NCBI GenBank assembly: GCA_963741205.1
Contig: CAVUHW010000013.1
Location: 32,001 to 96,000 of the forward strand
Direction: 5' to 3'
Length of the DNA: 64,000 nt
DNA from: Nitrospirota bacterium
Lineage (GTDB): Bacteria > Nitrospirota > UBA9217
Shown one piece after another: positions 38,485 through 46,016 of this stretch; the stretch's first letter is position 1, and each line of letters starts with the position of its first letter. The position numbers were made by a program, and so were the translations under genes. The notes under the pieces were generated by a model, which was not told the origin of the DNA, made no database searches, and saw only the letters and a list, made by a program, of their open reading frames with translations.

Positions 38485-38873
38485 GGTATCTTTTCCACAT
38501 ACTCGGAAGGCAGCCGTTTGGGTCTTCCATTAGGATCGACATACACCATTTTGGCCCTGCATTCTGCTAAGACCCGACGGGATGTCTTCTCCCGCATAAT
38601 ATGTTCGAATATCATGGTGGCTCGGGTGACATCCCTGACCCAGGTCTCGATTTCGAGCGTGTCGCCGTACCGCGCGGGAGATTTGTAGTCTATTTCCACG
38701 CGGAGCACCATGAATATTGTGCCCTCGTTCATGAGGCCCTTGACGGAAAAACCCTTTGCCGCCAGGTACTCGGTACGCGCCCGCTCCATGTATCGGAGGT
38801 AATTGGCGTAGTAGACCACCCCGCCGCAGTCGGTGTCCTCATAATAGATATGAACATCCATGGTGTGGTTCAT
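38481..38873 (-). CDS. YbgC/FadM family acyl-CoA thioesterase
   Basis: YYEDTDCGGVVYYANYLRYMERAR, YKSPARYGD. Confidence 0.9.
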   Translation of the reverse strand: MNHTMDVHIYYEDTDCGGVVYYANYLRYMERARTEYLAAKGFSVKGLMNEGTIFMVLRVEIDYKSPARYGDTLEIETWVRDVTRATMIFEHIMREKTSRRVLAECRAKMVYVDPNGRPKRLPSEYVEKIP

Positions 38874-39112
38874 ATGCTCTCCCTTTGGGGAGACAGTGTA
38901 AGATATTTCCTTCGTTTTGTCGAGCGGAAGATAAAGGGGTAAGATAGTATAGGGTAGAAAGAGGAAAGAACAGGGCTGAGCACATCTCGAGCGCACAATA
39001 AACGAGCATCAAGCGATATGCAGATGGAATGCGGTATGGAGAGTCGGGAAGGACAGGCGAATGAACGCCGGGCGCTGTGGAGTACGGAGAAAGCAGTATG
39101 TATCGAAAAAGT

Positions 39113-39430
39113 AAAAAAAAGGCGCTGCCCGCGAACCGGTTTTGATATTCCGCTGAACCCCACGTTCTCCCGGAAAGTACAACCTGCTTCTGCGGCTCCG
39201 CTCTGCAGACCCTATGAAGCGTAGTGTGTGTATTGCTCTTTCCGAGCGCCGTGCGGCTTAGGGGTTTTGGCTCTTCCGTTCTTTATGGATGCCTGTAAAA
39301 CAACCGGGAGACTGGCCACTCAACTTGCAGCCCTCTTACCGGCCTCGGCGACCCATCGAGCGCGGTGCCTGATCCCCTTTAAGACGGGTTATCATCTGAA
39401 CACCTATTGGTGATGGTTCGGCAACGCCCT
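39113..39430 (-). ncRNA. Putative ~310-nt structured non-coding RNA of unknown family
   Basis: 5' GGCGUUGCCGAACC pairs with 3' GGUUCGCGGGCAGCGCC followed by U8; inner helices ACCCGUC/GAUGGGU, UCUCCCGG/CCGGGAGA, ACCCCUAAGC/GCUUCAUAGGGU, GCUC-GGAAA-GAGC; upstream promoter; no credible ORF. Confidence 0.6.
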
Positions 39431-39444
39431 GTAAACTTTCTTAC

Positions 39445-39495
39445 CGTTATCAAAGAACGACTTTCTGAATATTTTCTACTAATACTATACCACAT
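39445..39495 (-). promoter_or_regulatory. Extended -10 promoter and boxA-like motif upstream of putative ncRNA
   Basis: Minus strand TGTGGTATAGT, then GTCGTTCTTTGATAAC. Confidence 0.55.
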
Positions 39496-39621
39496 TTGCA
39501 ATGCAGTCGCGAAATTTTTTTCATATAACCCTTGCCTCTGCAGTCGACGAGGACAAGCTCCCATCATCAGAATTATCTTGACCATCAAGAGAATTGTCTT
39601 TACAATTTCATCCCGTTATAT

Positions 39622-41150
39622 ATGGTTAGGATCATTCCCTCAAAAGAAGAATTTCTCCGGAAAGCGGGGTCGAGCGAGGTCCTGCCTCTTGCCGCGGAAC
39701 TCGATGTGCAGGAGCTGACGCCGCTGGCGGCGCTCGAGGCCTTGAGACCCTCGGGATACCCCGTCCTTCTTGAAAGCGCGCGAGTGGATGGCCGGATCGG
39801 ACGATATTCTTTCGTTACCGCTGATCCATACCTGATCTTTCAATCCCGCGGCGATACGGTAGATCTTATCCTTCCAGCGACTCCCGCCGGAAAATTCGGC
39901 AGACGGGCGGCAACGAGGCGCAAACCGCTTTTAAAACTGCGGGAACTTCTGAACAACTACCGGACTGCCAGAGTTTCCGGCCTTCCTCCTTTTACCGGCG
40001 GGGCGGTTGGTTTTTTTTCTTATGACTTCGTTCATCAGCTTGAGAATCTTCCGCGCAACGCAGCTGCCGATGTTGATATTCCTGAAGCATATTTTATCTT
40101 CGTAGACCTTGTTGTTGCCTTCGACCATGTCCTCAACAAAAGTTGGGTGATCGTAAACCCCGGCGCGCGAGAACAGGAACTGGGGTTCCGGAGGCCCGGT
40201 CCGGAAGAGTGGGATGGGCTCTATGACCGGGCCGCGGCAAGACTAGTCGCCGCGATCTCAAAGCTGGACGCCGCATCACTGCGGAGCGGGGCGTCCAGCG
40301 CGGAAGCCCATCCGGCGCATAAGCGGTCTCCCTCGTTTCCAATCTGAGCCGGGCCGCATTCGAGTCGATGGTCCGGCGATGCAAGGAGTATATCGCCGCG
40401 GGAGACATCTACCAGGCCAACCTTTCCCAGCGGCTATCCGCGGCCATCGGCAACGCGGACCCGCTCCGCCTGTACCGCATCCTGCGCACTATTAATCCCT
40501 CTCCCTTTGCTGCCTTTCTCGATTTTGGCGATCTGCAGCTCGTGAGTTCCTCGCCCGAGCGCCTTGTGCGGCTCCGCGAAGGGGTCGCCGATACCAGGCC
40601 GATCGCGGGCACGCGCCGGAGGGGGACCGACCAGGCGGAGATGCGTGAACTGTCCGCCGAACTGCTGACGAACGAGAAAGAGCGCGCCGAGCATATCATG
40701 CTTCTGGACCTCGAACGGAACGACCTCGGCAAGGTGTGCGAATACGGCACCGTCTCCGTCGATGAGTTTATGGTTGTGGAGGACTACTCCCACGTGATCC
40801 ACATCGTTTCGAATGTTCGCGGTTCACTTGCGCCGGGCAGGGACGCCTTCGATCTCGTAGGCGCCGTATTTCCGGGAGGGACGATTACGGGCGTTCCGAA
40901 GGTGCGCTGCATGGAAATCATCGACGAACTCGAACCGGTGGCGCGCGGGCCTTACACCGGTTCCATCGGTTACTTCTCGAACACGGGTGATATGGACCTG
41001 AACATCATCATCAGGACATTCGTGATCAAGGACGGTCACGCCTATATCCAGGCAGGTGCAGGGATCGTTGCCGATTCCGATCCCGAACGGGAATATTTCG
41101 AGACCCTTCAGAAGGCCGAGGCACTCAAGAAGGCGCTTGAGATGCTGTAG
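39622..41150 (+). CDS. Anthranilate synthase component I / aminodeoxychorismate synthase family (frameshift near 40335)
   Basis: LLESA, GRYSF, FTGGAVG, GDIYQANLS, SSPE, TRPIAGT, KERAEHIMLLDLERNDLG, GAGIVADS. Confidence 0.9.
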
Positions 41151-43869: not shown

Positions 43870-43945
43870 GCCACCGTAACTCAGTTGGTAGAGTAGCTGA
43901 TTTGTAATCAGCCTGTCGGGGGTTCGAGTCCCTTCGGTGGCTCCA
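43870..43945 (+). tRNA. tRNA-Thr(TGT)
   Basis: Cloverleaf, GCTGA-TTTGTAA-TCAGC anticodon arm, GTTCGAG, CCA. Confidence 0.96.
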
Positions 43946-44030
43946 TTTTCCCAGTTCCGAGGATTTGAGTTTCAGCGCAAGATGATCGTGATTCCGTGGT
44001 AGAAACAATCTGCAAAGCGAGGCGGTTCCC

Positions 44031-44116
44031 GGGGAGGTGCCCGAGTGGCCAAAGGGAACAGACTGTAAATCTGTCGGCGTCAGCCTACGGAGGTTCGAAA
44101 CCTCCCCTCCCCACCA
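44031..44116 (+). tRNA. tRNA-Tyr(GTA)
   Basis: ACAGA-CTGTAAA-TCTGT, long variable arm, CCA. Confidence 0.96.
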
Positions 44117-44187
44117 GTTGTGAATTGCAGATCGGCGATTGCGGATTGCAAATTGAAATATTTAATCCTCAATCCGCAATCCGAAAT
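44117..44187. repeat. Heptamer inverted-repeat element between tRNA-Tyr and tRNA-Gly
   Basis: ATTGCAG-ATCGGCG-ATTGCGG-ATTGCAA left; AATCCTC-AATCCGC-AATCCGA right. Confidence 0.75.
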
Positions 44188-44192
44188 AGCAT

Positions 44193-44269
44193 GCGGGAAT
44201 AGCTCAGCTGGCTAGAGCGCAAGCCTTCCAAGCTTGGGGTCGCGGGTTCGAATCCCGTTTCCCGCTCCA
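44193..44269 (+). tRNA. tRNA-Gly(TCC)
   Basis: CAAGC-CTTCCAA-GCTTG, CCA. Confidence 0.96.
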
Positions 44270-44320
44270 TAAACCGTTCAAAAGGTTTGAACGGATCAAA
44301 CCGTTGAAACCGTTTCAGCC

Positions 44321-44396
44321 GCCCATGTAGCTCAGTTGGTAGAGCACATCCTTGGTAAGGATGAGGTCAGCGGTTCAATCCCGCTCATGGGCTCCA
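44321..44396 (+). tRNA. tRNA-Thr(GGT)
   Basis: CATCC-TTGGTAA-GGATG, CCA. Confidence 0.96.
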
Positions 44397-44455
44397 TGAG
44401 AAACTGCAGGACAGGATGCAAGAGTAATTTCACTTTCCAACAGGAGGCGGACAGC

Positions 44456-45656
<1,201 letters not shown>

Positions 45657-45660
45657 TTTC

Positions 45661-45730
45661 ATTGCGAATTTCAGATTGCGGATTTCGGATTTTTTTTCAT
45701 TCCGCATATCCGCAATCCGCATTCCGAAAT
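45661..45730. repeat. Heptamer inverted-repeat element after tuf
   Basis: ATTGCGA-ATTTCAG-ATTGCGG-ATTTCGG left; ATTCCGC-ATATCCGC-AATCCGC-ATTCCGA right. Confidence 0.8.
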
Positions 45731-45753
45731 CAATATAGAGTGAGGCCATACAA

Positions 45754-45906
45754 ATGCGGGAAATCGTGCTTCTCGCTTGCGGCGAGTGCAAGCGAAAAAA
45801 CTATTCAACGACCAAGAACAAAAGAAACACGCCGGACAAGCTGAACCTGGACAAATATTGCCGGTTCTGCCGCAAACACACAGTGCACAAGGAGACAAAG
45901 GCGTAG
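45754..45906 (+). CDS. rpmG: 50S ribosomal protein L33 (Zn-binding form)
   Basis: Hand translation [50 protein letters not shown]. Confidence 0.96.
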
Positions 45907-45940
45907 TCAGGCAGTGAATGGCGATGCGGGGTTAGGACAC

Positions 45941-46016
45941 AGGCCAGTAGCTCTAATGGTAGAGCTCCGGACTCCAAATCCGGCTGCTGGGGGTTCGAGT
46001 CCCTCCTGGCCTGCCA
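45941..46016 (+). tRNA. tRNA-Trp(CCA)
   Basis: CCGGA-CTCCAAA-TCCGG, CCA end; canonical position before secE. Confidence 0.96.

Follow-up and report, generated by a model that had tools for sequence, protein, structure and literature searches.

The stretch of DNA analysed here (the window) comprises 64,000 nucleotides (nt) from a Nitrospirota bacterium (GenBank assembly GCA_963741205.1, contig CAVUHW010000013.1, positions 32,001 to 96,000). On its minus strand, a gene for a structured RNA lies between a thioesterase gene and the divergent trpE gene; its features are listed in Table 1. An initial annotation, made from the letters of the window, had proposed for this gap a non-coding RNA, stand-alone and structured, whose ends are paired and which might form an undescribed class; the proposal withstood all tests that were run. 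When 39100-39500 was compared with related genomes by BLASTN, the similarity started within a few bases of 39428 and stopped at about 39113. The limits of the RNA given in the initial annotation were therefore right. The primary transcript, judging from the position of the promoter, probably begins some 49 nt before the 5' end given there.

Table 1. Coordinates of the RNA gene, its leader and the flanking genes in the window.
Feature	Sequence	Position	Strand	Remarks
Extended -10 promoter	TGGTATAGT	39484..39492	-	read from sequence; predicted start near 39477
boxA-like leader element	GTTCTTTGATAAC	39446..39458	-	presumed NusB/NusE site, as in ribosomal RNA operons
Conserved RNA core		39121..39428	-	308 nt; helix P1, small hairpin, two stacked helices and two multi-helix domains; scores 314.1 bits with covariance model R1
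P1, 5' strand	GGCGUUGCCGAACC	39415..39428	-	first 10 bases invariant in 21/21 rows
Hairpin P2	CACC-loop-GGUG	39401..39412	-	stem nearly invariant; loop variable, 4-7 nt
Domain I		39260..39378	-	helices 6-14; closing helix AGGGG/CCCCU
Domain II		39157..39257	-	helices 15-21; long irregular arm
P1, 3' strand	GGUUCGCGGGCAGCGCC	39121..39137	-	T8 (39120-39113) directly after
U8 tract		39113..39120	-	directly 3' of P1; terminator-like end together with P1
Thioesterase gene		38873-38481	-	same strand as the RNA, 240 nt downstream of it
trpE, N-terminal part		39622..40347	+	Pfam Anth_synt_I_N, E 9.1e-32; divergent neighbour

Conserved fold of the RNA

The whole 318-nt stretch was predicted to fold at -129.3 kcal/mol, compared with -104.0 ± 5.1 kcal/mol for 100 dinucleotide shuffles (z = -5.00), none of which was equally stable. 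Covariation was counted in two alignments. The first (A1) was a MAFFT alignment of 21 homologues, with a consensus derived by RNAalifold from 14 rows of the same genus. In A1, 90.1% of the cells were paired, versus 35-43% when the 3' partners were slid, and 38 of the 97 pairs had changed on both sides, versus 20.7 ± 2.6 in shuffles (0/500 reached the observed count). The second (A7) consisted of 82 distinct sequences of the kind found in the window, hereafter type A, aligned to the covariance model R1 (313 positions, 93 pairs). In this model-fitted alignment, 89.3% of the cells were paired and 70/93 pairs showed changes on both sides; the shuffles gave 44.5 ± 2.4 pairs (0/500) and the slid versions 25-35. 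The MAFFT-based counts of A1 are the cleaner control of the two. The RNA is conserved in relatives, with compensatory changes.

The ends of the RNA are joined by P1, which has 14 pairs and a 3-nt bulge on the 3' side and was 99-100% paired. The initial annotation had read this helix, 39428-39415 with 39137-39121 followed by T8, on the minus strand, and it was kept in all relatives. Among the 82 distinct sequences, closing helices 1 and 2 were 99.6% and 99.3% paired, and helix 2 had both-side changes in 4/5 pairs. P2 (helix 3) was 96.6% paired, with both-side changes in 2/4 pairs, and is followed by the two stacked helices UGAUA/UAUCA and CCGU/GCGG. Within Domain I lie a long-range helix and a hairpin whose loop, AAGUUGA, is conserved. 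The tip of Domain II is a nearly invariant hairpin (39220-39186, GCUUC...GAAGC), and some relatives carry an extra hairpin insert in this domain. Sixty-five of 314 positions were at least 97% conserved, and 12 of these are unpaired. All pairs of unpaired columns were also scanned for stacked covarying pairs that might indicate pseudoknots, and only trivial matches between A-rich segments and the U tail were found.

The interior of the fold differed in part from the pairings first listed. Of the seven helices in the initial annotation, P1 was kept as written, two stood in part and four gave way to covarying pairings. The two partial cases, GGCC/GGCC and CUGC/GCAG, overlap two real hairpins but coincide with them only partly. 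As for those replaced, CCGU, listed within ACCCGUC/GAUGGGU, instead has its partner in (A/G)CGG, close to the 3' end. CCCGG/GCCGG and CGGAAAG/CUUUCCG together take the place of the 8-bp helix UCUCCCGG/CCGGGAGA and of the GCUC-GGAAA-GAGC hairpin. Where ACCCCUAAGC/GCUUCAUAGGGU had been drawn, the consensus has CCCCU/AGGGG and GCUUC/GAAGC.

The absence of a convincing protein from the gap was borne out: no open frame was conserved among 37 homologues, in which the longest open stretch (median 87 amino acids) shifted in strand and frame, and whose lengths modulo 3 were distributed 7/15/15. Taken together, these findings make us practically certain that this is a conserved multi-helix fold and a genuine structured RNA gene.

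Two side observations concern genes of the window. trpE is split there into an Anth_synt_I_N frame (39622-40347, plus strand) and a Chorismate_bind frame (40368-41150, plus strand), both of which match adjacent DNA stretches in relatives; the split could stem from a frameshift or a stop, or from an error in assembling the bin. Furthermore, five transfer RNA (tRNA) genes are clustered at 43870-46013 on the plus strand.

Known RNAs, paralogs and distribution

Across the window, Rfam 15 (4227 models, including OLE, raiA, ROOL, GOLLD, HEARO, riboswitches and T-box) recognised the five tRNAs and nothing else. Relaxing the threshold to E<=10 gave two chance matches in 38850-39650, and none reached the gathering score. 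Eight paralog loci gave no match to Rfam 15, and a search of ten loci at E<=10 gave 8 weak matches, with no family at more than one locus. A literature search at the level of titles and abstracts likewise found nothing on this RNA. The absence of a described family, as first suspected, thus held in both searches, and the RNA very probably belongs to no family described so far.

The initial annotation had also seen no signature of tmRNA, RNase P RNA, the signal recognition particle (SRP) RNA or T-box, and Rfam 15 gave no match to any of these at the locus. RNase P (RF00010), 6S (RF00013), tmRNA (RF00023) and SRP (RF00169) RNAs were all found elsewhere in 5/5 genomes, the window's own among them, with every match above the family cut-off. 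The models of small and large subunit ribosomal RNA (rRNA) did not match the locus either. In the window's own genome, RNase P RNA matched twice above the cut-off (C10:64992-65363 and C15:24401-24835; 274.7 and 232.5 bits), which suggests a second organism in the bin, whose stated contamination is 4.94%.

The likeness to 6S/Ms1-type RNAs that had been proposed was not upheld. Like those RNAs, the present one is an abundant stand-alone RNA whose 5' and 3' ends are paired. However, 6S RNA has 187 model positions and forms a rod with a central bubble, whereas about 310 nt are folded here into two branched domains. RF00013 gave no match at the locus at E<=10, and the canonical 6S RNA is encoded elsewhere in 5/5 genomes (86-106 bits; in the own genome on contig C26, 105.6 bits). 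6S RNA was accordingly rejected as the identity of the gene.

The distribution was examined at several depths. The BLASTN search found matches in 23/41 related genomes; with the own genome, which has one BLAST copy, excluded, these were 22/24 genomes of the family and 0/16 in other families. R1 matched 62/64 genomes of the order, 32/32 high-quality genomes and 19/19 genera; order, class and one family coincide here, being the same 64 genomes. In an even sample of the phylum, R1 matched 36/36 genomes of this family, and under stricter filters it was not found in the 114 genomes searched from 23 other Nitrospirota families (0/114). Phyla beyond Nitrospirota were reached through an exact pattern only, which was scanned in one genome per species and found in 90 stretches, 80 of which were listed. 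Among the matches listed, R1 matched all 34 loci titled Nitrospirota, Nitrospirae, Nitrospiria or Nitrospiraceae and none of the 46 others. In metagenomes, R1 confirmed 48/80 loci among the matches listed, and in viral contigs it confirmed neither of two pattern matches. As far as searched, the family is confined to one class-level lineage of uncultured Nitrospirota.

Seven loci of Clostridiales/Oscillospiraceae metagenome-assembled genomes (L089, L107, L115, L119, L125, L127 and L134) matched the pattern with the same 312-nt span, but R1 did not recognise them; what they have in common is probably a single conserved sequence unrelated to the RNA.

Weak full-length matches of R1 (34-78 bits) at further loci were found to be divergent copies, hereafter type B. 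When these were aligned with MAFFT and folded independently, the same architecture was obtained: 85.8% of the cells were paired versus 34-42% in slid versions, and 53/96 pairs had both-side changes versus 27.7 ± 3.7 in shuffles. A combined alignment of the 3' halves of both types (A5) was discarded, a conserved hairpin being misaligned in it. R2, a model of the type B 3' half, carries an automatic RNAalifold structure of only 9 pairs and is hence in effect a sequence profile; it gave matches of type B grade (at least 70 bits) in 12/37 family genomes sampled and, under the stricter filters, nothing in the 114 genomes of the 23 other families.

In most of the 24 rows of type B, an extended -10 promoter stands a few bases before the 5' GGCG, and many have a consensus -35 element too. 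The type B copies are flanked by unrelated housekeeping genes (dinB-like, UDG, radical SAM, phosphoribosyltransferase, YkuD and THUMP). Ahead of the promoter, roughly half of these rows have in common a stretch of about 60 nt, situated some 40-100 nt 5' of the RNA (e.g. L064:1950-2010), that is conserved across genera and gene contexts and may be a binding region for a regulator. A single type B copy was found in the own genome, on a contig other than that of the window. The largest number in one genome was five: at L062:8690-9884 (minus strand), three of these stand in tandem (two of type A and one type B-like), each with a promoter of its own; the fourth is 7 kb from them and the fifth is on a different contig.

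Promoter, boxA-like leader and 3' end

An extended -10 promoter and a leader of 45-66 nt (in one case 94 nt) with a boxA of the rRNA operon (rrn) type were newly seen before the RNA. The boxA-like element, of the form GNTCTTT(G/C)..., was present between promoter and RNA in 43/44 type A rows, where it ends 13-27 nt (in one case 39 nt; mode 16) before the mature 5' GGCG. The promoter was checked in these same 43 rows, and in every one a TGnTAnnnT box was found 45-67 nt (in one case 94 nt) upstream of the mature 5' end.

In the own genome, the rRNA operon bears GGTCTTTGAAAAC in the leader and GTTCTTTGACAAC in the 16S-23S spacer, and the same box recurred at both of these places in six further genomes of the class (7 in total). 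The box of the window, 39458-39446, has one mismatch to the spacer box and two to the leader box of its own genome. On both strands of this 4.27-Mb genome, the 13-nt pattern occurred only four times: in the rrn leader, in the 16S-23S spacer, in the leader of the RNA, and upstream of a frame resembling an ammonium transporter. This fourth site (C8:174472, plus strand) stands about 50 nt upstream of the frame, which is broken by frameshifts. boxA outside rRNA operons has reportedly been found upstream of CRISPR arrays. The present case is alike in that boxA stands in the leader of a transcript other than rRNA, and differs in that a short structured non-coding RNA follows it, not a messenger RNA.

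In a published boxA survey, which left non-coding RNAs out of consideration, the gamma-proteobacterial consensus is given as GYTCTTTAANA (PMC5725501). The box of the RNA fits it save at one position. We read the element as boxA because it is the same as the rrn box, because the genome has so few sites of the pattern, and because it fits this consensus. It is, on balance, likely that the box in the RNA leader is functional; binding of NusB/NusE to it is predicted from the sequence.

The 3' end was equally constant. All 37 type A rows of a further alignment (A2) end in CGCC and a run of five or six U, apart from a C at the second place of the run in one row and a final A in two. No strong local hairpin was found at the U tract: the last 40 nt had a median folding energy of -6.5 kcal/mol in the 82 sequences, and a simple terminator scan found none at the locus. 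The sole helix abutting the U tract is P1, whose strands are about 290 nt apart. Type A thus ends in a U tract preceded by a helix from distant strands, whereas in most rows of type B an ordinary hairpin terminator follows 20-40 nt further on.

This arrangement resembles that of rRNA operons. According to a study of the rRNA leader (PMC10250234), NusB-bound boxA is modelled to hold the leader strand close to the RNA exit for as long as the trailer has yet to emerge, and in Enterobacteriaceae the boxC leader strand lies 18-19 nt after boxA. As in the rrn leader-trailer system (rrnTAC), the same box here stands between the promoter and a strand that pairs far downstream, at a spacing of 13-27 nt (mode 16) that compares with those 18-19 nt. 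The differences are that about 290 nt of RNA are looped out instead of 1.5-3 kb, and that the product is not an rRNA. Furthermore, the long-range helix here is joined to a U tract; hence it would be expected to stop transcription and not to offer a site to RNase III. This geometry, rrn-like at a small scale, suggests that the tether aids P1 closing and termination.

The RNA was also abundant in RNA libraries. Among 20 listed sequencing runs, 14 of them recorded as RNA and all from 7 soil and rice-paddy studies, 18-35% of the sampled words of 39100-39440 were contained. Four RNA runs, each from a different study, supplied contigs that were placed on 38800-39750 at 80% likeness. Their cover was restricted to 39120-39471, with a summed depth of up to 8931 (run X7), and was zero over 38864-39119 and 39472-39750. 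In run X7, 16/84 placed contigs were at least 99% alike. The transcript for which the initial annotation had proposed a metatranscriptome check was thus abundantly present in RNA libraries, and the cover gave a hint that it is discrete. One contig of X7 (depth 46.8) joins 39437 to 39132, going back 306 positions with one letter between; this joint may stem from a circular form of the RNA, from a relative with tandem copies or from an artefact.

Possible roles and significance

Our preferred explanation, which we consider reasonably probable, is that type A is the core member of an undescribed family of abundant, highly structured RNAs of about 310 nt, and that it is made with the aid of boxA and acts in trans. 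NusB/NusE would bind boxA in the nascent leader, giving an antitermination and chaperone complex of the rRNA type on the polymerase, and this complex would shield the untranslated transcript from Rho. The leader, held at the polymerase, would keep the 5' strand of P1 near the RNA exit. When the 3' strand emerged about 290 nt later, the closure of P1 together with the U tract would terminate transcription, and the leader would then be trimmed to the conserved GGCG 5' end. The mature RNA would form a stable folded particle, most likely together with proteins, and would serve in trans as a housekeeping RNA or a global regulator. That it is a trans-acting ribonucleoprotein is, in our estimation, an evenly balanced proposition. 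We put forward only tentatively, as doubtful, the further reading that this new RNA, made by the rRNA antitermination machinery and ended by its self-terminating helix, is a fifth housekeeping particle beside RNase P, 6S, tmRNA and SRP RNAs, specific to one deep lineage of Nitrospirota and perhaps engaged in control of the ribosome or of translation.

Several observations weigh against this explanation. One genus (rows L054-L057, L059 and L060; also L092) has TCTTTCT in the box of the RNA, although its rrn boxA stays TCTTTGA, so that here the one box has changed without the other. Co-variation of the two boxes thus gained no support in this genus, a result that is neutral to mildly negative. 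The type B paralogs and one second copy of type A have no such box, and their start coincides with the mature 5' end; accordingly, the box is dispensable for the fold itself. The nearly constant adjacency of trpE is left unaccounted for. As for the evidence used, Nus binding, the transcript ends and any partners are predictions. A2 and A7 were fitted to the model and their counts lean towards it, and the kinship of the sequences inflates the shuffle control. The metatranscriptome contigs give neither the ends nor the strand of the RNA, and since the flanks are less conserved than the RNA itself, the sharp edges of the cover are partly an effect of likeness.

Among the other explanations, a ribozyme or an RNA-only assembly, in which the conserved junctions form a catalytic or self-assembling core, appears rather unlikely. 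The number of conserved pairs and nearly invariant positions would suit it, as would the tandem copies in one genome; such complexity is typical of ribozymes and of ornate RNAs that form homo-oligomers (PMC12286853). However, no known ribozyme family matched, and neither a pseudoknot nor long-range tertiary covariation was seen outside the nested helices.

A regulator linked to tryptophan, which would sense or signal tryptophan or tRNA-Trp, or would set trpE through the back-to-back promoters, is unlikely in our view. trpE was divergently upstream of the RNA in 47/49 type A rows from at least 19 genera, while the downstream gene varied; the gap between trpE and the RNA was mostly 133-199 nt, with exceptions of 306 nt and, for a tandem second copy, 632 nt. 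On the other hand, the RNA is transcribed away from trpE and hence is not part of the trpE mRNA, the type B paralogs stand in unrelated gene contexts, and neither T-box nor any other Rfam family related to tryptophan matched. Moreover, the gene order beside stable RNA genes is often conserved without a functional link, which counts against this explanation.

It is highly improbable that the RNA is a cis leader or riboswitch of a thioesterase-methyltransferase operon that terminates at the U tract: the thioesterase is on the same strand close downstream and the U tract could attenuate, but thioesterase and methyltransferase genes were downstream in 8/25 loci only (elsewhere other or convergent genes), so that no downstream gene class is constant and a leader for these genes is ruled out, and furthermore the helix before the U tract is the one that closes the whole fold, no alternative anti-terminator being conserved, and the RNA contigs stop at the U tract with no cover beyond it in the four runs. 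Equally slight is the chance of a very divergent 6S, RNase P, tmRNA or SRP RNA or of a mobile-element RNA (omega RNA, retron or intron remnant), similar in size, paired ends and copy number (up to five per genome), an identity largely refuted by the separate genes for all four universal RNAs, by the lack of any Rfam match including HEARO and intron families, by the viral pattern hits, neither of which fitted the model, and by the neighbours of eight copies, ordinary metabolic and repair genes among whose 25 proteins Pfam scans found no transposase, reverse transcriptase or nuclease.

Large bacterial RNAs with so many conserved helices are rare, and those that are understood are mostly ribozymes or the cores of essential particles. 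The orphan RNAs OLE, raiA, ROOL and GOLLD each opened new biology. The RNA described here resembles raiA and OLE RNAs in being an abundant, lineage-restricted, stand-alone gene with a complex conserved fold and many invariant junction bases. raiA RNA is about 200 nt long, and neither raiA nor OLE is known to have a boxA leader or a closing-helix terminator, features for which no search was made there. The present RNA differs in matching neither Rfam model and in occurring in Nitrospirota, versus Bacillota/Actinomycetota. In the literature, raiA motif RNA is described as abundant and without an assigned biochemical function (PMC12968392), and OLE RNA is given a length of about 600 nt (PMC9723947), versus about 310 nt here; published abstracts describe OLE as a ribonucleoprotein.

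The RNA is kept in almost every genome of a class of uncultured Nitrospirota from soil, sediment and groundwater, and is among the transcripts recovered at high depth by soil metatranscriptome assemblies. The covariance model can be used for annotating the gene in metagenome-assembled genomes, and the RNA may serve as a lineage marker in metatranscriptomes. With a length of about 360 nt, the transcription unit would be a compact natural test case for whether boxA-bound Nus factors aid the pairing of distant strands during transcription. If our preferred explanation is true, boxA control would be extended to a short non-coding RNA, and a terminator formed by a helix that spans about 290 nt would be unusual.

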